From: Candidatus Nomurabacteria bacterium
GTDB lineage: Bacteria > Patescibacteriota > Minisyncoccia > Phycocordibacterales > UBA5272
NCBI GenBank assembly: GCA_029288775.1
Contig: JARIGQ010000004.1
Location: 3,303 to 67,302 of the forward strand
Direction of reading: 5' to 3'
Length of the DNA: 64,000 bases
Below, one piece after another: positions 42,624-63,404 of this stretch. Position numbers and translations under genes: made by a program. Positions within the stretch are counted from its first letter, which is position 1; each line of letters opens with the position of its first letter. Under the pieces are notes generated by a model. The model had not been told where the DNA came from. It saw nothing but the letters and a program-made list of their open reading frames with translations, and ran no database searches.

Positions 42624-42708
42624 TAATTTCAGTACATTACAGTACAATACAGTAATCAGTGGATGTGATAGAAGATAGTAACAAGTACATGCAGTAAATA
42701 CAGTGAAT
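42624..42708. repeat. Intergenic CAGTA-array element A (CAGTA arm only)
   Basis: CAGTA at 42630, 42640 and 42650 (exact 10-bp phase), CAGTG at 42657, CAGTA at 42692 and CAGTG at 42701. Confidence 0.7.
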
Positions 42709-42729
42709 GCTAGGCGCAGGAAATATAAC

Positions 42730-45051
42730 ATGAAAGAAAATATGAAAAATAGAATAAGTAAGAACGTAGCAGCGATAAAAAGGCAAAGCCTTTTTATCGC
42801 TGTATTACTGATCGCCCTTTTCTGTAGTACTGTATGGACTAAAATCACTATATCAACTGTATTTACTGTACCCACTGCGTCTGCTGCCATTGTTCCCGTT
42901 CAGCCCTCCAATCAGGGTCTTGTTGGATATTGGAAGTTTGATGAAGGGGAAACGGCAACAGCAAAGGATTATTCCGGCAATCGTCTCAATGGAACTTTAA
43001 ATAATTTTTCCAGTACACCCTCTACCACAAGCGGATGGCAGACAAAGGGGAAAATAAATGGAAGTATTGCGTTGGATGGTGTGGATGATTATGTGCATAT
43101 TGGTACCCCGTCCGCTTTAAATATTACAGGAGATCTAACTCTTTCTGCTTGGGTAAATCCGCGAGCTTACACAAGTAATCCGTGTGGAGGAACTGCTCAA
43201 TTTCCGGTCTTTGGAAGAATCACTAATAGTAGATCTCCCTATGTTTTATCTATTGCCGCTAATTCTATCCTTTTTGGTAATAACCTTACTTCGGGAGGAG
43301 ATGTAAATAATTGGCAATATTTGATCCCCTCAACTTCGAATCCTGTTAATAAATGGGTACATGTAGCAGCGGTACGCTCTGGTACTACAATGATGGTTTA
43401 TAAAAATGGAGTTTTATTAGCTACTTCTACTCTTTTAGGTCCTAGTGTAAACACCTCATGGTCCGGGATACGTTTTGGGTTTGATGGATGTGGGAATTAT
43501 TACGCATCTGGATCCTTGGATGAATTATATATTTACAATCGAGCCTTATCTTCTTCTGAAATTGCTTATCTTGCAAAAAATGCCCCAACGTCAATTGGTG
43601 CTACGGCCACTTCCACTGCTTCATCGCTTACAAATGGCTTACAGCTCTACTACTCTTTTGATGGGAAAAATACTACGCCTACTTCTATTCCAGATATGTC
43701 TGGCAATGGGAATACAGGGACCGGATCATCAAGTACTGCCTTTGCTACCGCAGGGTCACTTAGTACGGGGAAAATAGGGCAAGGGGTTTTACTTACTTCT
43801 ACAACCACTGGTGCCTCGTATGTTCAGTATATTGATACAGGTTCCTCGACTTTTAACATTACGAATAAACTTACCATTTCTGCCTGGATTAAACCTAACG
43901 CAGCAGGGATCAAGACAAACACCATTCTTTCAAATGCCCGCGACTGCGGTGGTTGTGGCACATATAAAGGATTTAATTTCGGTAGCACTGCCGCCTATAA
44001 TGGTCTTAGTTTTTCCTATTTCGATTCTAATTCTTCGGGTCCGTTTGGTCTTACTGTGAGTAATTACTTTCCTCCAATTAATACGTGGACACATTTGGTA
44101 GTAACATTTAATAACAAAGTCACTAAAATTTATGCTAATGGAGTTTTAATTTCAAGTGGTACTATCGGAGGTACAGGTACAATAGGTACTCCTTTTAGTT
44201 TTGACAGTTTTGTTGGACGATATGGTTTTAGTCCAGGGTTCGGTTCTTCAAATGCTGTGTATGATGAGGTGCGTCTTTATAACCGAGATTTAAGTGTGAG
44301 TGAAATACAGCAGCTCTATAAGCTTGGGCAAGTGAAGCTTGCAAGCTCGGACCCCATATCTGCTCAATCAGGCACCGCTTCAGGACTCGTTGCTCATTTT
44401 ACTTTTGATGGCAAGAATATGACTTCAACATCTACTCTCGATAGTTCTGGTGGAGGAAATACCGGAACCTTAAACGGATCACCTCGTACAGATATTGGAA
44501 AAATTGGACAGGGATTAAGGTTTAATGGGAATGGTCAGTATGTTTCTCTTCCGAACTCCTCTCTTGAGCTTTCTGTACCGCTTTCATTTTCTGTATGGAT
44601 TAAACCAGTTCTACCTTCCTCTGCCGCAGGTTTAATTACTACCGATAAATCAGGAAGTAGTGTTCACTCAGGAGCTTGGATTGATTTACAAAGCAACGGA
44701 GCGCTAGGTCTAAACTACGGAAATAATACTATATGCGGCCCGACGGGTAGAAGATCATTTGCTACAGGTGGAGGGGTTATACAATCAAATAAATGGTACC
44801 ACGTTGTGGGGATTATACGTGGTCCAGTGGATATGAGTATTTATGTAAATGGAGTAAATATAAGCGGGTCATATAGCGGATCTGGTACCAATATTGTTTA
44901 TAGATCCGATTCAGGTCCTAGAATTGGAAGGGAAGATAATTGTTTAGCGAATTATTGGGACTATAGTGGATTAATGGATGATGTCCGTATCTATAATAAG
45001 GCACTTTCTGCTGCAGAAGTTCAACAGCTCTATAAATTAGGAGGAAAGTAG
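42730..45051 (+). CDS. Secreted protein with three LamG/concanavalin A-like lectin domains (Laminin_G_3 type)
   Basis: N-terminal TM/signal segment (LFIAVLLIALFCSTVW). Three repeats of the LVGYWKFDEG...DYSGNRLNGTL...GKINGSIALDG.DDYV ... LYIYNRALS pattern. The ORF track starts at GTG 42703; ATG 42730 is preferred. Confidence 0.75.
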   Translation: MKENMKNRISKNVAAIKRQSLFIAVLLIALFCSTVWTKITISTVFTVPTASAAIVPVQPSNQGLVGYWKFDEGETATAKDYSGNRLNGTLNNFSSTPSTTSGWQTKGKINGSIALDGVDDYVHIGTPSALNITGDLTLSAWVNPRAYTSNPCGGTAQFPVFGRITNSRSPYVLSIAANSILFGNNLTSGGDVNNWQYLIPSTSNPVNKWVHVAAVRSGTTMMVYKNGVLLATSTLLGPSVNTSWSGIRFGFDGCGNYYASGSLDELYIYNRALSSSEIAYLAKNAPTSIGATATSTASSLTNGLQLYYSFDGKNTTPTSIPDMSGNGNTGTGSSSTAFATAGSLSTGKIGQGVLLTSTTTGASYVQYIDTGSSTFNITNKLTISAWIKPNAAGIKTNTILSNARDCGGCGTYKGFNFGSTAAYNGLSFSYFDSNSSGPFGLTVSNYFPPINTWTHLVVTFNNKVTKIYANGVLISSGTIGGTGTIGTPFSFDSFVGRYGFSPGFGSSNAVYDEVRLYNRDLSVSEIQQLYKLGQVKLASSDPISAQSGTASGLVAHFTFDGKNMTSTSTLDSSGGGNTGTLNGSPRTDIGKIGQGLRFNGNGQYVSLPNSSLELSVPLSFSVWIKPVLPSSAAGLITTDKSGSSVHSGAWIDLQSNGALGLNYGNNTICGPTGRRSFATGGGVIQSNKWYHVVGIIRGPVDMSIYVNGVNISGSYSGSGTNIVYRSDSGPRIGREDNCLANYWDYSGLMDDVRIYNKALSAAEVQQLYKLGGK

Positions 45052-52481: not shown

Positions 52482-52582
52482 TTTCACTTATCCACTGGCT
52501 AAGTGGCATGGGGTCGCTACACTTAAAGAATAGGGATCTCGTATCCTTCAGGTCGGAGATCCTTGAATTTTAAACTAACACT

Positions 52583-52783
52583 ATGCTCTCACAACTCGCT
52601 CGTATCTTGGTGATTGTTGGAGGCCTTAACTGGGGCCTAGTAGGTCTCGGTTCTCTTATGAGCTCTGGAAGCGACTGGAATGTCGTTCACATGCTCTTGG
52701 GTAGTTGGCCAATGTTAGAAGCTATTGTCTATCTCTTGGTAGGTCTTTCAGCTATCTACATGATTTGGGATTCCATGCGCTAA
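52583..52783 (+). CDS. DUF378-family small membrane protein
   Basis: ILVIVGGLNWGLVGL ... AIVYLLVGLSAIYMI matches the DUF378 two-TM pattern. Confidence 0.7.
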   Translation: MLSQLARILVIVGGLNWGLVGLGSLMSSGSDWNVVHMLLGSWPMLEAIVYLLVGLSAIYMIWDSMR

Positions 52784-52798
52784 GATTGGAAGTAAAAT

Positions 52799-52827
52799 AG
52801 TAAATCGCGCTTTAGGCGCGATTTACT
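52799..52827 (+). terminator. Hairpin/terminator after the DUF378 gene
   Basis: AGTAAATCGCGC-TTTAG-GCGCGATTTACT, a perfect 12-bp stem. Confidence 0.5.
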
Positions 52828-52898
52828 ATTCCCAAAAGGAGGATCTTGCTAAGGTTAGAGGTTTTTAGTATGATACAAAGCACATTTGAGGCTTTCGC

Positions 52899-52970
52899 TC
52901 CGCAGTAGCTCAGCGGTAGAGCAGCGCGCTGTTAACGCGTTGGTCGTAGGTTCGATCCCTACCTGCGGAG
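52899..52970 (+). tRNA. tRNA-Asn (anticodon GTT)
   Basis: Manual fold: acceptor TCCGCAG/CTGCGGA, D-arm GCTC-AGCGGTA-GAGC, anticodon stem GCGCG/CGCGT with loop CTGTTAA, T-arm GTAGG-TTCGATC-CCTAC, discriminator G; CCA is not encoded. Confidence 0.85.
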
Positions 52971-52985
52971 CAAAAGTCTTGAGTC

Positions 52986-53020
52986 AAAAATACCCGCCCA
53001 AAGCGGGTATTTTTGTATTT
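52986..53020 (+). terminator. Intrinsic terminator after tRNA-Asn
   Basis: AAAAATACCCGC-CCAAA-GCGGGTATTTTT followed by GTATTTT. Confidence 0.7.
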
Positions 53021-53128
53021 TGGTCTCATAGAAAAAGCCAAAGTACTCCATTGTACTCCTGTAATTTCTCTATTTCTTTCTTCGTCACAAAGAGAGTAAC
53101 CAGGATTAATTAGCACTAGTACTCAACC

Positions 53129-53809
53129 ATGGACTATACAACTACTACATACACTCCGGGAATTGGTCAACAATTTACCGCTTCGCTTCAAAATGTGTTC
53201 TATACGTTTCTTTTGTTCCTTCCTAAACTTGTCGCTGCAATTATTATTTTTATCGTGGGCTATGTTTTGGCAGTAGTGCTTGCCAAAGTAGTACGACGAA
53301 TTGTTGCTTTTAGTCGTATCGACAGAGTAGTGCAAGATGTGGAAACTCATTCTCATCTACGAAGTGCAGGAATTCATTTCATTCCTTCCGTCGTGCTTGG
53401 TGTGATTACAAAATGGCTCGTTATGATTGCTACACTGGTAACCATTGCCGGAGTACTTAACCTCCAACAGATCAATCTCTTTTTGAATCAGCTCCTCCTG
53501 TATATTCCTAATATTCTAGTTGCGATTGTTATTGTTACCGTCGGATTTATTGTGGGGGATTTCTTGGAACGGTTGGTTAAAGGAATGCAGTTCTCAAGTA
53601 TTAGCCTTGGGGATAAACAAGTTATTTCGTTGGTGGCCAAGTACGGAACGGTCATCTTTGCAATTACCGCTGCGCTCGTACAATTAAAGATTGCAACTTC
53701 TCTTATTCAAATGCTCTTTGGAGGGCTTGTGCTTACTCTTACACTTGCCTTTGGTTTGGGTGGACGAGAGCATGCCGCTAAACTTCTCGATAAAGTCTAT
53801 CCGCGATAG
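53129..53809 (+). CDS. Hypothetical polytopic membrane protein
   Basis: Multiple TM helices with repeated 'conserved TM helix'-like segments (IIIFIVGYVLAVVLAKVVRRIV ... IVIVTVGFIVGDFLERLVKG); function unknown. Confidence 0.45.
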   Translation: MDYTTTTYTPGIGQQFTASLQNVFYTFLLFLPKLVAAIIIFIVGYVLAVVLAKVVRRIVAFSRIDRVVQDVETHSHLRSAGIHFIPSVVLGVITKWLVMIATLVTIAGVLNLQQINLFLNQLLLYIPNILVAIVIVTVGFIVGDFLERLVKGMQFSSISLGDKQVISLVAKYGTVIFAITAALVQLKIATSLIQMLFGGLVLTLTLAFGLGGREHAAKLLDKVYPR

Positions 53810-53825
53810 AGGGATAAGATGTGGA

Positions 53826-53863
53826 AACAGAAGAGCACCTTAAGAGGTGCTCTTCTGTTTTGG
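53826..53863. terminator. Bidirectional intrinsic terminator between the membrane-protein gene (+) and PMM (-)
   Basis: AAACAGAAGAGCACC-TTAAG-AGGTGCTCTTCTGTTTT. Confidence 0.75.
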
Positions 53864-53889
53864 TTGAGGAATTGGAGCTCGGACTAGTT

Positions 53890-54633
53890 TTAAGAAATAA
53901 GAAGGTCTCGGATAAAATCAGCAGTTTCTTGGACATTCTTAACTGCGTGGGTTTGTACCGGAACACGAAAGACAGCAGCATCATTACCTCCTTCAAAGAG
54001 TGCGTCGCCTACATAGACACATGATTCTATTGGTTGTTCCAGGCGATTGGCGAATTGTTGAACTGCGTAAGCTTTATCGATGCCGATTTTAGTGATATCA
54101 ATTGTAGTCATTCCTCCCAACCGAAGACAAAAGCCAGGCAGTTGAGGGGTTGCGCGAGCAACGAGCATTTGTCGTATCTTTTGATCCGGGTCGAATGTTT
54201 TTTTTGCTTCAAGTGGAGCTTCTTGACCCAAGAGCGAAATAGCTATTGAAGATGTGCGGTCTTCGATTTGGTTGCCAAAGAGCGCGTGCCCTTCTGTTAC
54301 TTCTTTGACAAGAGGTTCGAAGACTTCCGTGATGTGTTTTTTTTCTTCATCGCTTAATTCCATGACATACAAGTCTTTCCAAGTATTGTCTTCGTATAAT
54401 AAAGCGCGTGCGCCTGAAGTAGGAAAAAGGGTAAGGTTACTAAGGAGAGTAGAAGGTGGAAGATGAGCGACAATTTGTGACTTCATTTGTTCTATTCCTG
54501 CCCCGGATACCAAAGCAACAGGGAGACGATTTATAAGTCCACCAAGAAGCGTAGCCATTTCAAATGAAAGTGCTTGTTTGCTTTCAGTTAGAGTTCCATC
54601 TATGTCAAACAATATACCAGATAGCTTATTCAT
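53890..54633 (-). CDS. Eukaryotic-type phosphomannomutase (HAD-IIB, PMM family)
   Basis: HAD motif I ILFDIDGTLT, about 247 aa like PMM, and C-terminal VYVGDALFEGGNDAAVF (PMM-like ...GDK...GGND.EIF). Confidence 0.65.
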   Translation of the reverse strand: MNKLSGILFDIDGTLTESKQALSFEMATLLGGLINRLPVALVSGAGIEQMKSQIVAHLPPSTLLSNLTLFPTSGARALLYEDNTWKDLYVMELSDEEKKHITEVFEPLVKEVTEGHALFGNQIEDRTSSIAISLLGQEAPLEAKKTFDPDQKIRQMLVARATPQLPGFCLRLGGMTTIDITKIGIDKAYAVQQFANRLEQPIESCVYVGDALFEGGNDAAVFRVPVQTHAVKNVQETADFIRDLLIS

Positions 54634-54639
54634 GGACGG

Positions 54640-56571
54640 TTACTTAGCAGGCACAGGCTGCAGGCGGTTCATAAGCAGGGAAAGGGAGCAAGTGGCAACA
54701 TGGACTACCTTGTCTCCTCCGCCGTAATAGATAAACAACGTATCGTCTTGAAGCACTGCTCCGCATGGAAATACTACGTGAGGAATAATGCCCTCATGTT
54801 CATAGGCTGTATGTGGGAACATAATTGGCTCTATGCCTCGTCCTATGAGAACTGTGGGATCATGTGTATCCATAAGCGCAGCACCCAATGAGTATGTCCC
54901 ATCTTCTGAAATGCCGTGATAAAGGAGAAGCCATCCGGCTGATGTGTGGAGTGGAGGACTAGCAAGTCCTATTTTGCGGGAATCCCAAAACCCAGGACGG
55001 GGTTGCAGGACATCGATACATTTTGAGAGTTGTATATTCTCTAAAGGTTCTATGGATGGCACCGTATCGGCGCATAGTTGTCCGTTGATACGATGCAGGA
55101 ATACATACTCTCCTTTAACTGTTTCCGAGACCAGACATGCATCCTTGTCGCTTATTCCTGGCGGGCTAATAAGGTGCGGAGTATGCCACTTTTCCCACGC
55201 ACGATCGAGAAAGTCGGTTTTACTAATGGAAGTAATAGCTACCCGAGGTTCATCGACCCCATTGTACGCGGTGTAGAGCATATAAAGGGTATTGTCGATG
55301 CAGGTAATACGAGGATCTTCGCATCCGGAAAATGTGTTATCTCCCGCCTTTTTCATTTCAAAAGATTCTCGTGGTAGATAGATAGGGTCGGGAAGTCGCT
55401 CAGAAACCGTGTATCCATCCTGAGAAACAGCAAGGCCAACTACAGAGGTATTGTCACTCCCCATGGCTCGATAGAGGATATAGGTTGTGTCATCAATCTT
55501 AATCGCGGCAGGGTTAAATACTGCTACATTCTGCCACTTTGATCGAAGGAGGGGCTTAAGTATTGGTCCGCGAGGGGCGCGCGTGACAAGCTCCTCCTCT
55601 CTCATGCTTGTAAGAAGATGTGAGAGAACGAGGTTTGCTTTTGCACATACGGTGTCTCCAGCGCCATAGAAGATACTTAGTACGTCGGTTGTTTCATTAT
55701 AGATAAGACCCGAAGGAAATACTACATCTCGTACAAGACCGAATCGTTCATAAGCGGCTTCCGGTACAAGGATGGGGTTACGTGTACGGTATACGATCTT
55801 GAGAGGATTCACTTTATCGAGAACTACAGCTTCGATGGTAAACAATCTTTTTTCCGGAGTGAAATAGTGTTGGGCGCGAGAGTAAATGAGAAGCCATCCG
55901 TCTTTGGTAAGTAATGGCGGGGCACCAACTTCATTGTGATCATCGGAAGTTTTTGAGAGTATTAGCTTTTGCGATTGAAGATTGGCATGCCAGGTTGTCC
56001 AATAGTCTTCCGTAAAGAATTCTTCAATGGAGTCTGCTTGGGCTATAGCGGTTACGGCAGGGGGTTCGTCCGTGTGTGCTGTAAGGATGAGTGTTACTTT
56101 TCCCTCTATACGTTCAGGAAACAAAGTCATTGCCTTGGCGTTAAAAGGCGTGACAAGGTGTCGAGACTCAATCGTAATAAGGTCGCTTGATATGGCACAT
56201 GCGGCTTTGATGGTAGAGGGACCGAATGGAACACCTGAAATGGCTGTATAGAATATATAGTACTTCCCTTCAAAGTAGGTGACTCGCGGATCCTCACATG
56301 CGTACATATCGTATGATTCATTTCCCTCAAAAAGAATTCTTTCCTCTGCAAACGTTCCATCCGGTTGCTCCTTAGCAATGCCAATACACGATCGGGGTGC
56401 ATCATTTGATACCAAAGGATCAGGCCTTCCGATGGCGCGGTAGACAAGATAAGTGGCACCGTCTTTTTGTATAGGACAGCCATTTAAGGCTGCAACTGCT
56501 TGACGGGGGTCATGAGGAGAGGGCAGGAGAAGTGGATTTTTTTGCGAACGGGTAACTGTATACATATACAA
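54640..56571 (-). CDS. Tandem double GH130-domain protein (mannoside phosphorylase/hydrolase family)
   Basis: Two GH130-like units, each with the YRA.G... / CEDPRVT..[Y]Y..YTA pattern (CEDPRVTYFEGKYYIFYTA; GCEDPRITCIDNTLYMLYTAYNG). Confidence 0.7.
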   Translation of the reverse strand: MYMYTVTRSQKNPLLLPSPHDPRQAVAALNGCPIQKDGATYLVYRAIGRPDPLVSNDAPRSCIGIAKEQPDGTFAEERILFEGNESYDMYACEDPRVTYFEGKYYIFYTAISGVPFGPSTIKAACAISSDLITIESRHLVTPFNAKAMTLFPERIEGKVTLILTAHTDEPPAVTAIAQADSIEEFFTEDYWTTWHANLQSQKLILSKTSDDHNEVGAPPLLTKDGWLLIYSRAQHYFTPEKRLFTIEAVVLDKVNPLKIVYRTRNPILVPEAAYERFGLVRDVVFPSGLIYNETTDVLSIFYGAGDTVCAKANLVLSHLLTSMREEELVTRAPRGPILKPLLRSKWQNVAVFNPAAIKIDDTTYILYRAMGSDNTSVVGLAVSQDGYTVSERLPDPIYLPRESFEMKKAGDNTFSGCEDPRITCIDNTLYMLYTAYNGVDEPRVAITSISKTDFLDRAWEKWHTPHLISPPGISDKDACLVSETVKGEYVFLHRINGQLCADTVPSIEPLENIQLSKCIDVLQPRPGFWDSRKIGLASPPLHTSAGWLLLYHGISEDGTYSLGAALMDTHDPTVLIGRGIEPIMFPHTAYEHEGIIPHVVFPCGAVLQDDTLFIYYGGGDKVVHVATCSLSLLMNRLQPVPAK

Positions 56572-56577
56572 TGAAGT

Positions 56578-57717
56578 TTATCCTGTTTTAGTAAGAAGTT
56601 CATGTAACAACTCCTTCTCTTCTAAGTGGGCGACACATACACGTTTATCTCCTCCACCATAATAGAGAAAGATTCTATCGCCTTGTTTTACTGCCCCGCA
56701 CACATACACGATTCCTGGTTTACCGTCATTTTCATACCATTCATTTGGTTCCAGAAGGGGGAATTGTAATCGTGCCAACACGCGATATGGTTCTTGTAAG
56801 TCCAAAAGAAGAACACCTACTTTGTACTTATGTGGTTCAGCATGGGTGTTTGCATGGTAGAACAGAAGCCATCCCTTTTCTGTTTTAAGGGGAGGTGCCC
56901 CTGGACCCCGCATTCGAGTATCCCATGTTGCATCTGTCGTAGATTCGCGAGGGCCGACGGGACTTTGCACAAACGGCTGAGAGAATCCAAACCCTTCAAG
57001 GTTCTCTCGAAGCTCGATTTCTATTTTAGGGGAAATGCTATGAAGAATACCGTACTTGCCTTGTATTTTTTCTGGAAATAGTACCCAGTTTTTATGTATT
57101 TCTCCCGGAGGAGAAATGAGCTGGGGACGCTTCCATGTCCATTTCTTTTCGAGAAAATCCTTTTCGCTGATTGATGTAAGTCCAATCCGTATGAAGTCCC
57201 ACCCATCAAAGGCACTGTAGGTAAGATAGATAGTGTCGTCAATCTTTGTAATGCGTGGATCTTCACAGCCTCCCCAACTCCCTCCTGAAGGGTAAAGTGT
57301 AGGGTTATATGCTCGAAGATAGGGCGGAATAAATCGGTCAATAATGGAAGAATACACGGGGTAGGGAAGCGTACCGTCAATACGTACTCCATCTTTTGAG
57401 GATGCATATCCCAGGCGTGACACTCCATCTTTTCCGATGGCACGATACAAAAGGTGGGTTGTGTCTCCTATGCGAATTGCTCCGGGATTAAATACACCTT
57501 CGCACTCCCAGTCAAGGTGAAAACGTCCCTCATGTATCGGGTTGTGATATCCCTTTTGTATAAGGATTGATTTGGAGCCCTCTCTTTTCTCATCGGGACG
57601 AACATATTTTTTCCATAACACATAGAGGAGTACAAGAACAATGATTCCAAGTGTTTGAACAGCAAGCGGCGATTCCAGTAGTGTATCTGGAAGAGACGAA
57701 GATGTGGACGATATCAT
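56578..57717 (-). CDS. GH130-family glycoside phosphorylase/hydrolase with an N-terminal TM anchor
   Basis: TM segment LAVQTLGIIVLVLLYVLW, then GVFNPGAIRIGDTTHLLYRAIG ... WGGCEDPRITKIDDTIYLTYSAFDG. Confidence 0.7.
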   Translation of the reverse strand: MISSTSSSLPDTLLESPLAVQTLGIIVLVLLYVLWKKYVRPDEKREGSKSILIQKGYHNPIHEGRFHLDWECEGVFNPGAIRIGDTTHLLYRAIGKDGVSRLGYASSKDGVRIDGTLPYPVYSSIIDRFIPPYLRAYNPTLYPSGGSWGGCEDPRITKIDDTIYLTYSAFDGWDFIRIGLTSISEKDFLEKKWTWKRPQLISPPGEIHKNWVLFPEKIQGKYGILHSISPKIEIELRENLEGFGFSQPFVQSPVGPRESTTDATWDTRMRGPGAPPLKTEKGWLLFYHANTHAEPHKYKVGVLLLDLQEPYRVLARLQFPLLEPNEWYENDGKPGIVYVCGAVKQGDRIFLYYGGGDKRVCVAHLEEKELLHELLTKTG

Positions 57718-58151
57718 GATTGCTGAGGCGTATGTGCGCGTGTTGGTCTATTATATTTGTCTTCCAATCGCTCTATGTCTTCTTCATTAAACATACCAAT
57801 GGCAATTTCCAAAAAAACCACAGGATCAGAATCGGCTTGTATGCGATGAAGGGTGCCTCGTGGAACTTCGTAATACTTTCCCACCTCAAGAGGGCTTGAG
57901 GAAGTGTCCAAAGTAATAGTTCCTGTGCCTGAGATAATCTTCCAGTATTCGTCGCGATTTTCATGGCGTTGCAGGCTGAAGGCTTCACCCGGTAATACTG
58001 TAATAATTTTTACCGTACTTGGCTCATTGAGAGTAAAACGCTCGAATGTTCCCCATGGCCGTTCTTCTGTTTTGTGTGCAATAAGGTGAGGGTGAGGATC
58101 CATAGAGAGGGTTTTGCTTAATGTACTTTCAGTATATAGACAAAAAGACAT
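57714..58151 (-). CDS. Stand-alone mannose-6-phosphate isomerase-type (type II PMI) cupin domain
   Basis: RPWGTFERF..NEPSTVKIITVLPGEAFSLQRHENRDEYWKIISGTG ... YYEVPRGTLHRIQADSDPVVFLEIAIGMFNEEDIERLEDKYNR matches the ManC/PMI C-terminal cupin. It overlaps the next gene by 4 nt (ATGA). Confidence 0.65.
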   Translation of the reverse strand: MSFCLYTESTLSKTLSMDPHPHLIAHKTEERPWGTFERFTLNEPSTVKIITVLPGEAFSLQRHENRDEYWKIISGTGTITLDTSSSPLEVGKYYEVPRGTLHRIQADSDPVVFLEIAIGMFNEEDIERLEDKYNRPTRAHTPQQS

Positions 58152-58206
58152 TATTTGGTGTTGAAAACCTGCTGCTTACAACCTTTTTACTCTATCAGCA
58201 CATGTA

Positions 58207-58241
58207 AAATAGGCTCCCCTTGCTAGAAGGGGAGCCTATTT
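58207..58241 (-). terminator. Intrinsic terminator (bidirectional hairpin) downstream of the GlsB-like gene
   Basis: AAATAGGCTCCCC-TTGCTAGAA-GGGGAGCCTATTT. Confidence 0.7.
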
Positions 58242-58256
58242 GTTAAACGAACTTAT

Positions 58257-58505
58257 TTATCTCCTGATCGCGCGAACGATTGCAATAAGTACACAGGCAC
58301 CGATGAGCGCAACTATGAAACTGTAAAGATTGAACCCTGTCGTGCCGGACTGGCCGAAGAAACTCATGATCCAGCCACCAATGACTGCACCGACAATACC
58401 AACGATGATATTGAGGAGGGGGCCTTGTTCGGCGTCAGTCTTCATAATGATTGAAGCGATCCATCCCACAAGAGCACCGAAGATGATCCATAGAAGTATT
58501 CCCAT
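58257..58505 (-). CDS. GlsB/YeaQ/YmgE-family (transglycosylase-associated) small membrane protein
   Basis: MGILLWIIFGALVGWIASIIM...GIVGAVIGGWI, the family signature. Confidence 0.8.
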   Translation of the reverse strand: MGILLWIIFGALVGWIASIIMKTDAEQGPLLNIIVGIVGAVIGGWIMSFFGQSGTTGFNLYSFIVALIGACVLIAIVRAIRR

Positions 58506-58633
58506 AGTAGTATAGATTAGTTAATGTAATGTCCAGGGTCGCGTAAGCGCAACTCTGTCTATGTATGGTGACGCTTTGGGAAAAAGAATCTTACTTTGAG
58601 AGCGCTTGAAAAGACTAGTATTTAAAGGATTAT

Positions 58634-58963
58634 CTAGAAGCTCTCCTGGTTCTCCTCATCTCCCATTTGGGTAAATTCATCCAAGTTCACCAAGGAATCC
58701 ATTTTGTCATCTACTTCTTCCAGCTCCATCTCATCTTCTGATTTTTTGGGTGTGCCATCATCAAAGGGTACGCCGAGGAGTTCTTCTCTTAGTTCTCCGG
58801 GAGAATGATATTCTTTTTCTGGTAGAAGGGCTATTGCTTCGCGGACATTATCAGGCAATGGGAAATCCAATGATTCTTGGACAAGTCCATCGCGATCGAT
58901 AGGAAAAGGAACGTTTTCAAAAAAATCATCCAAGTGGTTAATGATGCTTCTATCCATATGCAT
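58634..58963 (-). CDS. Hypothetical acidic protein
   Basis: ORF trimmed to Met-50 (MHMDRS...) because a strong terminator for the upstream gene lies at 58990-59018; highly acidic C-terminus. Confidence 0.35.
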   Translation of the reverse strand: MHMDRSIINHLDDFFENVPFPIDRDGLVQESLDFPLPDNVREAIALLPEKEYHSPGELREELLGVPFDDGTPKKSEDEMELEEVDDKMDSLVNLDEFTQMGDEENQESF

Positions 58964-58989
58964 CCTAGACGGAAGGAGATTTATTCTCT

Positions 58990-59018
58990 TACAAAAAAGC
59001 GCCCATCGGGCGCTTTCT
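58990..59018 (-). terminator. Intrinsic terminator downstream of the 59028-59735 membrane-protein gene
   Basis: Minus strand reads AGAAAGCGCCCGATGGGCGCTTTTTTGT. Confidence 0.75.
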
Positions 59019-59027
59019 AAGTACAGG

Positions 59028-59735
59028 TTAAGCAATGTGAGGTCCTGAAGTACTTTTAGATTTATGCATATGGTGGTCTTTAAGCATCTTGTAAACATAG
59101 GCGTATGCAATAAGGGAGAGAGGAACAGTAATCACCAGTCCCACGCCAAGAAGAAGGAGTCCTAGAAGATTTATAGCGGCTAAAATGAGATTGAATGCAA
59201 GGAGTTTAAGAAACATTCCTCTTGTACTGTTCCAGCTAGAAGTAAAGGAAGTCCGAACGTCTGCGCTACTGTCTATGATGGCATAGATGTAGAATTTGAG
59301 GCGTAAAGAAATGTAAAGCAGTGGCCATAGAGAAAGTATTCCCACACCAACCGCAAGCCATATATGATCTTCCGAAGAAGAAAAGAGTTTGAAAATAACG
59401 GCCGCGTCAATAACTCCAATGAGGGTAACAAGGAGGCCAATTATCACCATATAAAGGAGGGTACCTAGAAGGGATTTTATAAAAATGGTTTTATTGGTAA
59501 ACGGCAAAAGGAGGTCTTTCCATGCGGTAGGTTGTCCATCTACGATTCGAAGCGAAAGGCCTACAAGCCCAATCATGACTATTAATCCTACTAAGAGATG
59601 AAGAGGGGGGAAAGTGGGAATCGAGAGAAGAAAAAGTGAAACTAACGCCACTTGAAAGAGGAACCAGGAATGTTCTTTGGTTTTTTCCCATCCGAACGTT
59701 AGTGCGTGCTGTATTGAAAATGTATGTTGTGTCAT
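59028..59735 (-). CDS. Hypothetical polytopic membrane protein
   Basis: 6-7 predicted TM helices; no recognised catalytic motif. Confidence 0.45.
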   Translation of the reverse strand: MTQHTFSIQHALTFGWEKTKEHSWFLFQVALVSLFLLSIPTFPPLHLLVGLIVMIGLVGLSLRIVDGQPTAWKDLLLPFTNKTIFIKSLLGTLLYMVIIGLLVTLIGVIDAAVIFKLFSSSEDHIWLAVGVGILSLWPLLYISLRLKFYIYAIIDSSADVRTSFTSSWNSTRGMFLKLLAFNLILAAINLLGLLLLGVGLVITVPLSLIAYAYVYKMLKDHHMHKSKSTSGPHIA

Positions 59736-59761: not shown

Positions 59762-60238
59762 CTAGTGAACATCTTCATGTTCAGCGTGAAAGCGCTCAAG
59801 TTCTTCGCTTAGGGTTGCCATATCTTCTCCGGCCACCTTTTCTTCCATGGAAGGTAAGAGTTCTTCCTCCTCCTCTAATACATGATGAGTAAAGGTTTCA
59901 TTCAAAACTTTTACACGTGCATCAAATTGAGGGTCCTCGGGATGGGTAACGCTTAATTCCTCTAAGAGGCGCCTAGCAATTCCATGTTCTGCCTTTGCTT
60001 CTTCTACCATCTTGCGTGCTTCTTCTTCAAAGGCTCGAGAAGCTAAAGGATAGACGAGTCGCTCTTCCATTTCCATATGCAAACGAAGGAGGCGAATAAG
60101 TTTTCGTACGGTTTTATTTTTAGTCTCATAGCCCAGCTCATCTATCTCTTCATATTGTTTAAAGAGAGCTTCAGCTTTTCTATGATCATTGAGGATAAAT
60201 TCGATGGGGTCATTCATAGGGACGTAAGCATATTGCAT
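59762..60238 (-). CDS. Hemerythrin HHE cation-binding domain protein
   Basis: ILNDHRKAEALFKQYEE ... HHVLEEEEELLPSMEEK (H..EEE..LFP-like) motifs; the start is trimmed to an internal ATG. Confidence 0.6.
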   Translation of the reverse strand: MQYAYVPMNDPIEFILNDHRKAEALFKQYEEIDELGYETKNKTVRKLIRLLRLHMEMEERLVYPLASRAFEEEARKMVEEAKAEHGIARRLLEELSVTHPEDPQFDARVKVLNETFTHHVLEEEEELLPSMEEKVAGEDMATLSEELERFHAEHEDVH

Positions 60239-60379
60239 ACTAAGTGAAAGTATGGTGGTATGTCTACGTGACGGGGTATAGGTGCTTTGCCTTACCAAAG
60301 AAGAGATGTAATATTTCTCTCCCTGTAGCGTCACCCTCGTCAGAAACGACACTTTTATCTTAATCGCTACACAACGCAT

Positions 60380-61093: not shown

Positions 61094-61594
61094 ATGGATC
61101 ACCTTACTGGAAAACTTAAACAAGCATATGACGAATATTCCGACGCAATATTTCGCTATTGTTGCTTTAAGGTTTCCGATCGCGAAAAAGCGATTGACCT
61201 CACTCAGGATGTTTTCGTAAAAGTATGGCAATATCTTTTGGCAGGAAATGAGGTAGAGAATATGAAGGCGCTTCTTTATAAAGTGGCACGCAATCTCATC
61301 ATTGATGAATATCGCAAGAAAAAATTTGACTCTCTTGATACAATGTCCGAAGCAGGCTTTGAACCGACGGACAATGCTCAATTGGATACTATTTCTATAG
61401 TGGAAGCAGGACTTTTGGTGGAACGCATTAAGGAGCTTCCCGAAGCATATAGCGAAGTTGTTTTTATGCGGTATGTTGATGATCTTTCGGTAAAGGAAAT
61501 TGCAGAAGCTCTTGGTGAACAGGAAAACAACGTATCTGTCCGCATCCATCGCGGACTGCACAAGCTTAAAGTCAGCATTACCCAAACCTCATGA
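61094..61594 (+). CDS. ECF-family RNA polymerase sigma factor (sigma-70 regions 2 and 4)
   Basis: Region 2 (DLTQDVFVKVWQYL ... LYKVARNLIIDEYRKK) and region 4 (SVKEIAEALGEQENNVSVRIHRGLHKLK). Confidence 0.85.
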   Translation: MDHLTGKLKQAYDEYSDAIFRYCCFKVSDREKAIDLTQDVFVKVWQYLLAGNEVENMKALLYKVARNLIIDEYRKKKFDSLDTMSEAGFEPTDNAQLDTISIVEAGLLVERIKELPEAYSEVVFMRYVDDLSVKEIAEALGEQENNVSVRIHRGLHKLKVSITQTS

Positions 61595-61967: not shown

Positions 61968-62645
61968 ATGAAATACGCCACTCTACGTGCTAAAGCGACT
62001 CTGAGCGCACTTTTGCTACTTGGTATAGTCACAGCACACGCTTATGCGCTTGATACTGGCGTGTATCTTGACGCTTCTGCATCCGCAGCATCTGTTCAAG
62101 ATATCGACACTTCGCTCGATCTTAAGGCAGATACTATAACGCATGTGGAAGGAGCGTATCAATTAGAAGCACAAGAGAAGAGTAGTACAACGCAGCCAGA
62201 GACCACCACTTCATCTCCGCAAAGTACTCCTTGGGAAAAAGCATGGCTATATGGGGACGCCGATACCGCAACAAGTGCGTCACCATTTCTTTTCCTCAAG
62301 CATCTCTTTGCAGTGCTTACTTTTAATGTCGATTTTGGTACTGAGGAAGCTTCAAGTACTCAAGGGATACTTCAATCTCTTGTGGTACGTGATGTAGGTT
62401 CAGATAAAGCCACAATCGATTGGTCTCCGACAGTTTTAGAGGACGCAACGGTGTATTATGGCACCACGACTTCTCTAGCAATGGCGGAGGCAGCGGTTCA
62501 TGAGCCTTCTTGGAAATTCTGGAAGCGAAGCCAGATTACTCTTGAAGGACTGACTCCTAACACAACGTATCTTTTCAAAGTAGTAGGAAGCACGGGTACT
62601 GGCACTACAACCGCCGCATCCAGCTTTACTACTTTGCCTCATTAG
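61968..62645 (+). CDS. Secreted protein with a C-terminal fibronectin type III-like domain
   Basis: Signal peptide (LSALLLLGIVTAHAYA); FN3-like end (ATIDWSPTV...LEGLTPNTTYLFKVVG). Confidence 0.55.
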   Translation: MKYATLRAKATLSALLLLGIVTAHAYALDTGVYLDASASAASVQDIDTSLDLKADTITHVEGAYQLEAQEKSSTTQPETTTSSPQSTPWEKAWLYGDADTATSASPFLFLKHLFAVLTFNVDFGTEEASSTQGILQSLVVRDVGSDKATIDWSPTVLEDATVYYGTTTSLAMAEAAVHEPSWKFWKRSQITLEGLTPNTTYLFKVVGSTGTGTTTAASSFTTLPH

Positions 62646-62672
62646 GGCTTCTAATCTACTTACTTAATTACT

Positions 62673-63404
62673 ATGACAACAAACGTACTTACTATCGCGA
62701 ATGGCTATCTTCGCAAGAATCTCGGCCACATCGTCACGTTCATTACATCAGCATTCATTGTGCTTGCTGTGACGCTCGGCTTTACTCAACTAGCCTCTGC
62801 ACAAATGGTTCCTATTGTTGGGCAAGCGGGACCGGGTGCATCTGGAGCAAATGTTACTTCTATTCAAAGCTATCTTGCCACTACTCAGTTCTATCCTGAG
62901 AAGTTGGTGACCGGCTATTATGGTCCTCTTACGCAAGCAGCCGTAGAGCGTTTCCAGGCTTACTACGGTATTGTAAGCTCAGGATCACCTTCAGCCACAG
63001 GCTATGGGCGAGTGGGTCCTTCTACGCTTGCTAAGATGAATATTCTTATTTCCGGTGGAGTTTCTTCCGGGGCCGATACATCAGCTCCTTATATTAGTGG
63101 AGTAGTGGTTTCCCCGGGTTCAACAAGTGCAACCGTATCATGGAATACGAATGAACTTGCAACCGGTCGTGTGTATTACAACACAACACCGCTTACTTTC
63201 AACGAAGGGGACATTAATTCGGTCGGCTTCTCGGTAACCAATGGTCAGAGCGCAAGCTTCGATACGACAACTCGTCTCGTCCATGGGGCGACAGTTACCG
63301 GTCTTAGTCCCAATACAACGTACTACTACCTTATCGTGGCAACCGATCCTTCAGGAAACGTAAGTATTTCTCTTCCAGGAGCTACGTTCCGCACAGGAAT
63401 GTAA
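62673..63404 (+). CDS. Membrane-anchored peptidoglycan-binding (PG_binding_1-like) protein with a C-terminal FN3-like domain
   Basis: TM helix; YYGPLTQAAVERFQAYYGI...GRVGPSTLAKM (PG-binding repeat); then ATVSWNTNELATGRVYY...TGLSPNTTYYYLIVATD. Confidence 0.6.
   Translation: MTTNVLTIANGYLRKNLGHIVTFITSAFIVLAVTLGFTQLASAQMVPIVGQAGPGASGANVTSIQSYLATTQFYPEKLVTGYYGPLTQAAVERFQAYYGIVSSGSPSATGYGRVGPSTLAKMNILISGGVSSGADTSAPYISGVVVSPGSTSATVSWNTNELATGRVYYNTTPLTFNEGDINSVGFSVTNGQSASFDTTTRLVHGATVTGLSPNTTYYYLIVATDPSGNVSISLPGATFRTGM

Follow-up and report, generated by a model that had tools for sequence, protein, structure and literature searches.

The cluster of four mannose-related genes on this “Candidatus Nomurabacteria” contig raises the question of whether it feeds on imported mannosides or handles a mannoside made by the cell itself. 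The sequence-only reading took it for a complete catabolic route from host- or glycan-derived mannosides. Our analysis of the window (the whole 64-kb stretch of DNA) and of related loci suggests that the cluster may serve to make and reuse a β-1,2-mannoside of the cell itself, rather than simply to break down mannan from outside.

All open reading frames of the arrangement first described, four tightly packed minus-strand genes in the order PMI cupin, GH130, GH130x2, and HAD, were found (Table 1). The cupin and GH130-A genes overlap by 4 nt, 6 to 12 nt lie between GH130-A and the tandem gene, and 6 nt separate the latter from the HAD gene. Two start codons, those of the cupin and tandem genes, probably need a small correction. 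Because the cupin orthologues are 113 to 117 aa long, Met17 (position 58103) is the more likely start, which would give a protein of 129 aa; the tandem gene is called by NCBI from an ATG at 56565, with a product of 641 aa. A Transgly_assoc gene lies upstream (positions 58257 to 58505), and its terminator, a G+C-rich hairpin of 12 bp, was read directly as AATAGGCTCCCC-loop-GGGGAGCCTATT followed by TTTT, its core also being flagged by a terminator scan. Since this strong terminator closes the upstream gene, the cluster would begin its own transcription unit, and the four genes are predicted to form a single unit with its 5' boundary set there. The remainder of the window is mostly housekeeping, in agreement with its earlier description as metabolism poor.

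Table 1. Features of the cluster and its upstream boundary, in positions of the window
Feature	Position	Strand	Description
Cupin ORF	57714..58151	-	145 aa as called
GH130-A	56578..57717	-	Single GH130 propeller, 379 aa
GH130-A transmembrane helix	57616..57672	-	Residues about 16-34, SPLAVQTLGIIVLVLLYVL (predicted)
Tandem GH130 ORF	54640..56571	-	Two GH130 units, 643 aa as called
Tandem N-terminal unit (N-unit)	55591..56571	-	Residues 1-327, non-canonical propeller
Tandem C-terminal unit (C-unit)	54640..55590	-	Residues 328-643, canonical phosphorylase signature
HAD-IIB phosphohexomutase-like protein	53890..54633	-	247 aa
Intrinsic terminator of upstream Transgly_assoc gene	58206..58240 (approximate)	-	Hairpin and T-run

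The cluster was confirmed to be a real, conserved module. Its arrangement recurs in 83 independent loci at 46 to 57% identity, and the sharing of gene order despite different flanking genes argues against chance. The tandem protein is encoded in at least 600 species genomes, nearly all labeled Patescibacteria/Paceibacteria. Upstream of the tandem gene, GH130-A is present in 76 of 77 loci, and the cupin and HAD genes are neighbors in 65 of 73 and 37 of 61 loci, respectively; the HAD gene is missing within ±8 kb in 24 of the 61.

The cupin matches PF01050 with 73.5 bits (curated cut-off, 23.6) and positions 341 to 467 of the 467 positions of TIGR01479, and its description as a stand-alone type II PMI cupin thus holds as far as homology to that domain is concerned. 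It aligns over the entire PMI domain of the type II PMI-GMP enzymes (AlgA, XanB, WbpW, ManC-PMI) with 34 to 37% identity, the C-terminal PMI domain of one bifunctional ManC-PMI protein being 37% and that of another 34% identical (E values of 4e-23 and 7e-19). The motifs RPWG, SLQxH..R.E.W, HR, and ED.Y(G/N)R are common to both, whereas the cupin lacks the guanylyltransferase domain and conserves neither the second His of HxH nor the His after Glu. Near-invariant in 68 cupin orthologues are (R/K)PWG, S59-L60-Q61-x-H63, R66, E68, and H102-R103, while the residue at position 65, where the canonical HxH has its second His, varies. Some PF01050 domains and proteins have no PMI activity (PMC3204966), and no assayed stand-alone PF01050 domain of 115 to 130 aa was found in the literature searched.

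The HAD protein was matched by PF03332 (44.4 bits; cut-off, 22.4) and TIGR01484 (68.8 bits). Its best PDB match is full length (residues 7 to 244), to the α-phosphoglucomutase pgmH of Lactococcus lactis (4BND; 2.8e-32), compared with 1e-14 or weaker for the PMMs in the PDB. It had been called a eukaryotic-type PMM; membership in the PMM family stands (PF03332), while the eukaryotic type does not, the Lactococcus enzyme being much closer. With both pgmH and eukaryotic PMM1/PMM2 it shares the HAD-IIB fold family, the DxDGT nucleophile, and GDxxxxGGND. The catalytic Asp residues of PMM, D10 and D12, are both present and invariant in 46 orthologues, as are T14, K19, R126, K144, K187, G216, N217, and D218; Q137, D210, and G215 are kept in 43 to 45 of the 46. 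K19, Q137, and K144 match 4BND and not the aligned PMM2 residues, which we take to be R21, R134, and R141. The characterized Lactococcus enzyme is named for glucose phosphates, and mannose phosphates are argued for the HAD protein from genomic context only.

All three propellers match PF04041 far above the curated cut-off of 26 bits (132 bits for GH130-A and 254 bits over two stretches of the tandem protein), as expected for GH130; the tandem protein also matches NF052550 with 344 bits, under the equivalog cut-off of 450. Placement in DUF377 rather than GH130, once proposed as a refutation, is not a meaningful distinction, because DUF377 is presumably the former name of PF04041. Homologues carry the JGI label “GH43/DUF377 family.” The criteria of PMC7660257 were applied to the phosphorylase and linkage residues. 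In all three propellers the proton-donor Asp is invariant, and so is the β-1,2 Glu/Lys pair, a signature that would indicate the rare β-1,2 linkage and not that of common β-1,4 mannan. The proposal that the propellers are phosphorylases suits the C-unit, with an Arg/His pair in 84 of 84 proteins, and is less well supported for GH130-A and the N-unit, which are missing Arg and both Arg and His, respectively; only the C-unit looks like a true phosphorylase. Its best PDB matches are 9fj8 (8.9e-51) and 7fip (1.7e-47), and Foldseek superimposed it on Teth514_1788 with a TM score of 0.89 to 0.90 and an rmsd of 1.9 Å. R368, E418, D419, K476, H493-R494, and Y551-H552 are found in 84 of 84 proteins and D620 in 82, the remaining two being gaps. 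The C-unit thus has the full set of residues by which β-1,2-mannoside phosphorylases are defined.

The N-unit matches 9fj8 with 3e-28 as a single sequence and 1.8e-55 as a 45-sequence profile. R45, E93, D94, K146, and D306 do not vary among 84 proteins. The R168-equivalent position holds Thr (76) or Ser (5) and the H231-equivalent one Ser (82), and D168, which adjoins the missing Arg, is kept in all 84. With a mean pairwise identity of 0.584 versus 0.593, the N-unit is as conserved as the C-unit, though both phosphate ligands are gone. The AF2 model of the tandem protein is confident (pLDDT of 92 for both propellers; pTM of 0.88). GH130-A is likewise closest to 9fj8 and 7fip (about 4e-42). Among 66 single-unit orthologues R92, E152, D153, K209, and D357 are invariant and H288 occurs in 65, while the R168-equivalent (S227) is Ser in 31, Asn in 21, Ala in 11, Gly in 3, and Arg in none; the β-1,2 signature is present and the phosphate-binding Arg missing. 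A hydropathy and charge scan of GH130-A found no signal peptide and a helix that is preceded by no K/R and followed by 6 K/R within 15 residues. An N-terminal helix was seen in 31 of 80 orthologues, and its charge bias (typically 0 K/R before and about 4 after) points to an N-out/C-in orientation with a cytoplasmic propeller, so that GH130-A is predicted to be anchored on the cytoplasmic side of the membrane. About 30 of the other orthologues carry a basic, Lys-rich tail instead; 14 orthologues bear an additional, degenerate domain at the N terminus.

Weak use of GDP-Man has been seen in every β-1,2 GH130 phosphorylase tested, and transferase activity is predicted to be favored over phosphorylase activity where the L2 loop is short and makes fewer contacts to phosphate (PMC12814180). 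Replacing the equivalent Arg of Uhgb_MS by Ala also abolished transferase activity, and Arg loss alone is therefore no predictor of a transferase; in GT108, GT versus GP is not decided by active-site residues alone (PMC10913872). Since GH130-A and the N-unit keep the proton donor and the mannose-binding residues while their phosphate ligands are conservedly replaced, and since one would lie on the inner membrane face and the other is fused to a phosphorylase, both probably bind the same glycan and do something other than ordinary phosphorolysis.

A search for an adjacent mannoside transporter found none within the cluster or close to it in the window and none recurrent among the neighbors of the 83 loci, nor was an extracellular mannanase linked to the cluster in either set. 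In 22 Patescibacteria loci a co-oriented gene for a putative, RfaE-domain-II-like sugar-1-P nucleotidyltransferase (NT163; 67 bits, well under the RfaE-II cut-off of 181) lies in or directly beside the block; it heads the block in 20 Patescibacteria loci and is four genes away in one further locus. The 64-kb window contains no NT163 homologue and no nucleotidyltransferase near the cluster, and the cluster itself includes no GDP-mannose pyrophosphorylase. Glycosyltransferase neighbors occur in only about 10 to 18% of loci, and GT4, GT2, DedA, and PAP2 genes are near the cluster in some. Natural single-polypeptide fusions of all three GH130 units exist in the order A-N-C. Outside the Patescibacteria clade their genes adjoin ManC or ManC-PMI, GT2 synthases, nucleotide-sugar dehydrogenases, and an alginate-lyase-like gene, or sit beside a stand-alone PF01050 cupin; in locus L086 the start of the fusion gene is overlapped by ManC, and in L085 and L088 ManC-PMI lies next to it. 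These triple fusions are thus found in GDP-mannose/polysaccharide biosynthesis loci. No report of β-1,2-mannan from these bacteria was found in the literature searched.

The steps from Man-1-P through Man-6-P to Fru-6-P are the textbook partner of GH130 phosphorylases (PMC4264767), and the domains assigned for the proposed catabolic route hold. The completeness and direction of that route go beyond the evidence, because the Arg/His phosphate site occurs in one of three propellers only, the linkage signature is that of β-1,2 and not β-1,4, no transporter accompanies the cluster in the window or recurs in the 83 loci, the HAD protein is closer to the Lactococcus α-phosphoglucomutase than to PMMs, PF01050 domains can be PMI inactive (PMC3204966), the GH130 trio of related genomes sits in GDP-mannose/polysaccharide biosynthesis loci, and a sugar-1-P nucleotidyltransferase-like gene joins the cluster in 22 Patescibacteria loci. 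The module probably serves an endogenous glycan pool. Our tentative reading, to which we assign a probability of about 0.45, is a cytoplasmic system, Fru-6-P ⇌ Man-1-P ⇌ β-1,2-mannoside, that makes and remobilizes an endogenous β-1,2-mannoside, in preference to one-way use of external mannan. It is favored because the whole module lies in the cytoplasm and is not accompanied by an importer, because hundreds of minimal genomes retain the cluster, and because its relatives occupy GDP-mannose/polysaccharide synthesis loci. The cupin would catalyze Fru-6-P ⇌ Man-6-P as a homologue of the type II PMI domain, the HAD-IIB protein Man-6-P ⇌ α-Man-1-P as a mutase of the PMM/α-PGM family, and the C-unit β-1,2-Man(n) + Pi ⇌ Man(n-1) + α-Man-1-P. 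GH130-A might perform transfer or priming, either on a membrane-proximal acceptor or from a bulkier substituted-phosphate donor such as NDP-mannose, and the N-unit might process chains by hydrolysis or disproportionation. PMI and mutase would run in both directions, with the β-1,2-mannoside as a reserve or envelope-glycan precursor. Against this reading, phosphorylases are normally degradative in vivo. Further points against it are that GH130 phosphorylase, PMM, and PMI together make up the classical set for catabolism (PMC4264767), that the window's cluster contains neither a GDP-mannose pyrophosphorylase nor an NT163 homologue, that 24 of 61 loci are missing the HAD gene, that PF01050 domains can be inactive, and that the search for reports of β-1,2-mannan in these bacteria gave none.

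Were the cluster purely catabolic, imported β-mannosides would be converted in the cytoplasm to α-Man-1-P, Man-6-P, and Fru-6-P with one ATP saved per hexose, and the three propellers would share out the chain lengths among them in the manner of Teth514_1788 and Teth514_1789. Patescibacteria are generally seen as fermentative scavengers, which suits such a role. So do the canonical GH130 pathway combination (PMC4264767), the C-unit with its canonical phosphorylase signature, the cytoplasmic location of all units, a must for phosphorylases (PMC7660257), and the division of work by chain length between the two adjacent GH130 genes of Thermoanaerobacter. We nevertheless regard pure catabolism as rather unlikely: two of three propellers lack Arg or both Arg and His, with conserved and not random replacements; neither transporter nor extracellular mannanase is linked in the 83 loci or the window; at least 600 minimal genomes retain the cluster although β-1,2-mannosides are uncommon as substrates; soluble catabolism offers no obvious role for the membrane tether of GH130-A; and the relatives are tied to biosynthetic loci. 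The Man-1-P node might instead mainly feed NDP-mannose to glycosyltransferases for envelope glycans, being supplied from Fru-6-P by the cupin and HAD protein or by phosphorolysis of β-1,2-oligomannosides, with the GH130s recycling or buffering Man-1-P. Chiku et al. proposed the same for the Teth514_1787-1789 cluster with its Man-1-P guanylyltransferase and GT4, and the ManC and ManC-PMI genes at the triple fusions of L086, L085, and L088, the RfaE-II-like gene at the head of 20 Patescibacteria blocks, and the GT4, GT2, DedA, and PAP2 genes of some loci agree with it. The window, lacking both a nucleotidyltransferase near the cluster and any NT163 homologue, makes this role improbable, as do the low RfaE-II score of NT163 and the scarcity of glycosyltransferase neighbors.

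We give still less credence to the Arg-less propellers being non-enzymes, pseudo-subunits that bind glycan or act as a scaffold. The N-unit would then be a covalent partner in place of the Teth514_1788-type homodimer, and GH130-A a membrane receptor passing substrate to the phosphorylase. Teth514_1788 and Uhgb_MS do form dimers, with their L2 loops in contact at the interface, the pTM of the tandem model would imply a fixed two-propeller assembly, and both units are missing phosphate ligands. However, the proton-donor Asp and all -1/+1 subsite residues are invariant in both (66 to 84 sequences), a conservation that a scaffold would not need, and the replacements are constrained to Thr/Ser beside the invariant Asp168 and to Ser231 in the N-unit and to small residues in GH130-A.

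The closest solved relatives of all three propellers are Teth514_1788 and Teth514_1789 of Thermoanaerobacter sp. X-514 (9FJ8 and 7FIP), GH130 β-1,2-oligomannan and β-1,2-mannobiose phosphorylases. They have in common with the cluster the β-1,2 Glu/Lys signature, the short L2 loop, side-by-side GH130 genes, a cytoplasmic location, and a link to Man-1-P-using enzymes. Both have the full Arg/His phosphate site, in contrast to one of three units here, and descriptions of them mention neither tandem fusion nor membrane tethering; their cluster contains an ABC importer, GH5, Man-1-P guanylyltransferase, and GT4, where the present one has a PMI-type cupin and a HAD mutase and no importer. The GH130_3 β-1,2-mannosidases BT3780 and BACOVA_03624 also miss the basic phosphate ligands and keep the proton donor and the β-1,2 Lys (PMC4599007). 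In them Glu (E227, E268) replaces the basic residues as base, whereas Ser/Asn/Ala/Gly or Thr and Ser are found here, with an invariant Asp adjoining the missing Arg in the N-unit; most have signal peptides, while GH130-A and the N-unit are cytoplasmic. In the Leishmania mannogen cycle, paralogous five-bladed propellers (GT108 MTP1-7) act on a cytoplasmic β-1,2-mannan as GDP-Man-dependent β-1,2-mannosyltransferases and mannan phosphorylases (PMC12814180, PMC10913872). GT108 structures were not reached at E ≤ 1 from the A- and N-unit profiles, and the fold match is weaker (TM score of 0.64 to 0.68). Arg is replaced by His in GT108 but by Ser/Asn/Ala/Gly or Thr here, and, unlike the GDP-Man-dependent Leishmania transferases, the window's cluster encodes no GDP-Man source. 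The resemblance would thus be one of functional analogy: as in the cluster, GT108 members vary at the phosphate site, strict transferases being without Arg and phosphorylases with it, and mannogen is a reserve that is both made and phosphorolyzed (PMC12814180, PMC10913872).

The cluster comprises four genes in 4.3 kb, and its minus-strand ORFs lie exactly where the sequence-only reading had placed them. Its domain calls were also correct, all far above the curated thresholds: PF01050 in the cupin (73.5 bits, cut-off 23.6), PF04041 once in the single-propeller protein GH130-A (132 bits) and twice in the tandem protein (254 bits in two stretches; cut-off 26), which places the propellers in GH130 by profile, and PF03332 in the HAD-IIB mutase-like protein (44.4 bits, cut-off 22.4). 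Along the cluster, the first two genes overlap by 4 nt, and the next two junctions are spaced by 6-12 nt and 6 nt. Small corrections of two start codons are indicated, as the true start of the cupin is probably Met17 (58103) and that of the tandem gene probably the ATG at 56565. Because the hairpin and T-run upstream of the cupin terminate the preceding gene, the cluster begins its own transcription unit. When 53000-59200 was scanned for promoter and terminator consensus sequences, the counts did not exceed those of shuffled sequence, leaving this hairpin as the sole useful element, and an Rfam scan of 52500-59500 returned tRNA-Asn only, with no riboswitch or leader.

Features of the cluster and of its surroundings in the window
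Feature	Coordinates	Strand	Remarks
Cupin	57714-58151	-	145-aa ORF, PF01050
GH130-A	56578-57717	-	379 aa, PF04041 once
Tandem GH130 protein	54640-56571	-	643 aa, PF04041 twice
HAD protein	53890-54633	-	247 aa, PF03332
Intrinsic terminator of preceding gene	58206-58240	-	12-bp G+C-rich hairpin plus T-run, read directly
tRNA-Asn(GTT) gene	52899-52971	+	ARAGORN and Rfam (70.5 bits); ~0.9 kb past cluster 3' end
MFS transporter	9846-11015	-	~40 kb off cluster
Orphan family-5 solute-binding protein (SBP_bac_5)	12953-14689	-	No adjoining ABC permease genes; ~40 kb off cluster
Probable giant surface protein	19027-42591	+	One 7,854-aa ORF
Protein with three Laminin_G_3 (concanavalin-like) repeats	42703-45051	+	782 aa
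Cluster 5' flank: hemerythrin-domain protein, ECF-type sigma factor, two secreted proteins	59762-60379; 61094-61594; 61968-63404	-; +; +	Secreted proteins with fibronectin-III/purple-acid-phosphatase-N-like and peptidoglycan-binding domains

As had been described from the sequence, the window is otherwise poor in metabolism and thus resembles a Patescibacteria genome. Most of its other genes are housekeeping ones (UvrC, ribonucleotide reductase, Pol III α, RNases J, HII and III, NusB, HPF), together with small membrane proteins and a 7,854-aa ORF, within which the GC skew falls to -0.27 at 20 to 22 kb. This ORF probably encodes a giant surface protein, a type of protein common in Patescibacteria. 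The MFS and SBP_bac_5 genes are the sole transport-related genes noticed in the window. No link to the cluster was evident for the genes of the 5' flank, and an exact-sequence look-up found no public names for the window proteins.

The AlphaFold (AF2) model of both propellers of the tandem protein (mean pLDDT 92, pTM 0.88) retrieved only GH130 proteins as top matches in Foldseek, with TM scores of 0.89 to 0.90 to the closest solved structure, 9FJ8, as expected for the five-bladed β-propeller fold of this family. GH130-A and the N-unit and C-unit (residues 1-327 and 328-643 of the tandem protein) are all closest to the Thermoanaerobacter β-1,2 phosphorylases Teth514_1788 and Teth514_1789. The NCBIfam models agreed with the cluster proteins at the family level, with scores below the equivalog level; for the β-1,2-mannobiose phosphorylase equivalog NF052550 (cut-off 450 bits) the tandem protein scored 344 and GH130-A 176.

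In UhgbMP numbering, the residues that define GH130 function are the proton donor D104, the phosphate pair R168/H231, and R59, Y103, R150 and D304 of the +1 subsite (Li et al., PMC7660257), with Glu at Y103 and Lys at R150 marking β-1,2 specificity (PMC7660257, PMC4599007). Every unit has the proton-donor Asp (D153, D94 and D419 for GH130-A, N-unit and C-unit), which is invariant in 80 to 84 orthologues; equally invariant is the Glu/Lys pair (E152/K209, E93/K146 and E418/K476, respectively); together with the equivalents of R59 and D304, these positions had zero exceptions in all three units (66 to 84 orthologues). Since the Glu/Lys pair is invariant and the nearest relatives are β-1,2 enzymes, the linkage signature is β-1,2 and not β-1,4.

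The three units differ at the phosphate site. In the C-unit both residues of the pair are present in every sequence (R494, 84/84; H552, 84/84), so that this unit has the complete phosphorylase signature of Li et al., though it lies under the NCBIfam equivalog score. GH130-A has lost the Arg, whose position is occupied by Ser in 31, Asn in 21, Ala in 11 and Gly in 3 of the 66 single-unit orthologues and by Arg in none, and it keeps the equivalent of H231 in 65 of them. The N-unit has lost both residues (Thr in 76 or Ser in 5 of 84 sequences at the Arg position; Ser in 82 at the His position) and carries an invariant Asp168 directly after the missing Arg. We found no match to the signatures of these two units among the 15 published GH130 meta-nodes. 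A decaying duplicate as the origin of the N-unit was rejected, as its substitutions are fixed and its conservation equals that of the C-unit (mean pairwise identity, 0.584 versus 0.593).

GH130 hydrolases have lost the R/H pair, gained a carboxylate base and usually possess a signal peptide (PMC7660257, PMC4599007); the GH130_3 enzyme BT3780 carries carboxylates E227/E268 in place of the basic phosphate ligands (PMC4599007). As to these GH130_3 mannosidase traits, Glu/Asp is absent from the two aligned positions of the A- and N-units, all three units lack a signal peptide, and NF058598 scores were far under the cut-off; Asp168 of the N-unit is a candidate counterpart of the BT3780 base. The 14 loci in which the GH130-A orthologue is 594 to 665 aa long form a separate case (L025, L026, L029, L031, L035, L042, L045, L046, L049, L056, L062, L063, L071 and L075). 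An extra N-terminal domain of ~270 aa, with GH130 similarity of only 10 to 22 bits, brings the total in these genomes to four propeller units, carried by a pair of tandem proteins, and the phosphate-site Arg is restored in 5 of these 14 orthologues.

GH130-A contains one hydrophobic helix (residues ~16-34) with no K/R before it and six in the next 15 residues, a pattern common to 31 of 80 orthologues; the N-terminus of the tandem protein is not hydrophobic. By the positive-inside rule, this bias (N-out/C-in) points to a cytoplasmic, membrane-tethered propeller, a location judged from hydropathy and charge analysis. Some 30 GH130-A orthologues have a Lys-rich low-complexity tail in place of the helix (for example in L041, L054 and L067; e.g. 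KKKVVRKVRKTSKRK), and our guess is that helix and tail both serve to fix the protein to the anionic inner face of the membrane. GH130 phosphorylases are cytoplasmic and lack a signal peptide (PMC7660257). The absence of signal peptides from the three propeller units fits this rule, but a simple soluble pathway would not account for the tether.

The catalytic aspartates of PMM, on which the sequence-only reading had made its assignment of the HAD protein depend, are present as D10 and D12 in 46/46 sequences, and the Mg-binding GDxxxxGGND motif is retained as well (D210, 45/46; G216-N217-D218, 46/46). The label "eukaryotic-type PMM" held for the family and failed for the closest solved relative, which is the HAD-type α-phosphoglucomutase of Lactococcus lactis (4BND; 2.8e-32 over the full length), eukaryotic and parasite PMMs matching at 1e-14 or weaker. 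Three basic positions are as in the Lactococcus α-phosphoglucomutase and not as in PMM2. The protein is therefore best described, from its sequence, as a putative mutase of the PMM/α-PGM family, for which gene context only would favor mannose over glucose phosphates.

Two bifunctional ManC-PMI proteins from related loci have PMI domains to which the cupin aligns throughout its length with 34 to 37% identity, and with which it has the motifs RPWG, SLQxH..R.E.W, HR and ED.Y(G/N)R in common. Gln61, His63, Arg66, Glu68 and His102 are near-invariant, and the position of the second His in the canonical HxH varies. By analogy with type I PMI, in which zinc is bound by a Gln-His-Glu-His site, a metal site in the cupin is plausible. 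Proteins with the PMI motif that lack PMI activity are on record (PMC3204966).

The tandem protein (640 aa) has thousands of homologues; the best 120 are nearly all 630 to 660 aa long and 49 to 57% identical, and, where their source is named, are labelled Paceibacterota, Minisyncoccia, Adlerbacteria or Patescibacteria. Scanning GTDB with a single genome for each species, we found relatives of the tandem protein in at least 600 species genomes, 599 being confirmed as relatives among the matches listed. We compared 83 independent loci. Of 77 with enough sequence, 76 have the single-unit GH130 gene upstream of the tandem gene (68 of them within 150 nt), and the cupin gene lies directly upstream of the single-unit gene in 58/73, with 7 more having it elsewhere in the locus. 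Of 61 loci, 37 carry the HAD gene, which sits either immediately after the tandem gene or ahead of the cupin. Given this recurrent order and flanking genes that vary by lineage, the cluster is a conserved module, of which the HAD gene is the least constant member. Many MAGs with a Paceibacteria-type cluster were deposited as "uncultured Candidatus Saccharibacteria" (e.g. L014, L015, L018 and L024), and the name given to one is "Candidatus Omnitrophota" (L062). Such labels may reflect loose or wrong taxonomy, or contamination, rather than genuine occurrence outside Paceibacteria.

Clustering of all flanking ORFs of the 83 loci identified a 163-aa cytidylyltransferase-fold protein as the commonest neighbor from outside the cluster (23 Patescibacteria loci). 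Among NCBIfam models it best matches RfaE domain II (manno-heptose-1-phosphate adenylyltransferase; 67 bits, below the model cut-off). In 20 loci its gene heads a co-oriented block consisting, in this order, of the nucleotidyltransferase, the HAD protein (or a second, Cof-type HAD), the cupin, GH130-A and the tandem protein, and two further loci have it immediately after the cluster. Examples are found in L032, L043, L055, L070, L078, L081 and L050 (5027-5518); it is absent from the window. A different Cof-type HAD takes the slot of the PMM-like HAD in seven loci, six with the nucleotidyltransferase gene and one other.

Four homologues of 971 to 1,110 aa (P0016, P0038, P0044 and P0102, from loci L085 to L088) are natural A-N-C fusions in which each unit has its own phosphate-site signature; they have no membrane anchor, and their genomic contexts are not Patescibacteria-like. 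At one of these loci, ManC and the beginning of the GH130 gene overlap, in a co-oriented series that also has a synthase-type GT2, an epimerase and a nucleotide-sugar dehydrogenase; at two others, a bifunctional ManC-PMI adjoins, along with a GT2 and a dehydrogenase, and one of them has an alginate-lyase-like gene. The dehydrogenase in these neighborhoods is a GDP-Man/UDP-Glc dehydrogenase. The fourth locus has a stand-alone PF01050 cupin after the GH130 gene. These loci look like alginate-like exopolysaccharide loci with an embedded GH130 trio. The published Thermoanaerobacter cluster also contains a Man-1-P guanylyltransferase and a GT4. The trio is thus tied repeatedly to a PMI domain and, outside Patescibacteria, to GDP-mannose-dependent polysaccharide synthesis.

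Three steps make up the part of the mechanism that sequence criteria support: the cupin would interconvert Fru-6-P and Man-6-P, the HAD protein Man-6-P and α-Man-1-P, and the C-unit would catalyze β-1,2-Man(n) + Pi ⇌ Man(n-1) + α-Man-1-P. For the other two units, published work on enzymes with a short L2 loop associates, as a rule of thumb, four phosphate contacts with bifunctional phosphorylase/transferase activity and three with transferase activity, phosphorylase activity then being slight or absent; all tested β-1,2 GH130 phosphorylases use GDP-Man, weakly (PMC12814180). The alignment of GH130-A with Teth514_1788 is gap-free across L2, and GH130-A is short of one phosphate contact, so it could be a transferase-leaning enzyme at the membrane. 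As the R202A substitution in Uhgb_MS abolished transferase activity too (PMC12814180), and as activity in GT108 is not decided by active-site residues alone (PMC10913872), we can only infer this assignment. The N-unit, without two of the contacts and with an invariant Asp beside the gap, may hydrolyze, disproportionate or merely bind.

We favor the reading that the module both makes and remobilizes an endogenous β-1,2-mannoside, and give it a probability of roughly 0.45. In its favor are the cytoplasmic location, the missing importer and the wide retention in minimal genomes, as well as the fixed specialization of the three paralogous sites and the biosynthetic company of the relatives. Pure catabolism of an imported mannoside ranks second and is possible, if rather unlikely. 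This is the complete phosphorolytic operon that the sequence-only reading had proposed; as a pathway it is plausible, but of its three GH130 units the C-unit alone backs it. Annotation of 30 further window ORFs yielded no sugar importer, glycolysis genes or ManC, and an adjacent mannoside transporter, which had been suggested as a check on that proposal, did not materialize, since the flanking ORFs of the 83 loci include no recurrent transporter. Supply of Man-1-P for nucleotide-sugar synthesis seems improbable. Least probable among these alternatives is that the Arg-less units are non-catalytic pseudo-subunits.

Patescibacteria have tiny genomes with very little recognizable metabolism, and Paceibacteria, minimal and host-dependent, account for much of the candidate phyla radiation; that at least 600 such species keep this module suggests that it matters for their lifestyle. 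If the favored reading of an endogenous substrate is right, a major uncultured lineage possesses an unrecognized β-1,2-mannoside, either a reserve or an envelope glycan; if the substrate is exogenous, the module identifies a specific nutrient taken from hosts. The two conserved active-site types (Arg lost; Arg and His lost), with donor and β-1,2 pocket kept, are new relative to the published classes, and the A- and N-units offer natural test cases for what determines phosphorylase, transferase or hydrolase activity in this fold.

In the literature searched we came across no account of this cluster, of GH130 proteins with tandem or triple units, or of a membrane-tethered GH130; a Microgenomates genome paper mentions two intracellular GH130 genes in passing. 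The module is real, conserved, largely undescribed and made of known families. Its nearest sequence relatives are the Teth514 β-1,2 phosphorylases. The GT108 MTPs match the propeller model at the level of the fold only (Foldseek TM 0.64 to 0.68), and as family profiles of the A- and N-units gave zero GT108 matches at E ≤ 1, we claim no homology beyond the fold. The nearest analogue as a system is the mannogen cycle of Leishmania, in which paralogous propellers are split into transferases and phosphorylases acting on a cytoplasmic β-1,2-mannan. By analogy, Paceibacteria might harbor a bacterial counterpart, in which the Arg-less propellers would build a cytoplasmic β-1,2-mannan reserve, one of them priming at the membrane, the C-unit would remobilize it, and the cupin and HAD protein would couple it to Fru-6-P. 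We consider this specific version quite unlikely; were it true, it would be the first carbohydrate-storage system proposed for Paceibacteria, and the division of labor between transferase and phosphorylase seen in Leishmania would have arisen independently within GH130.
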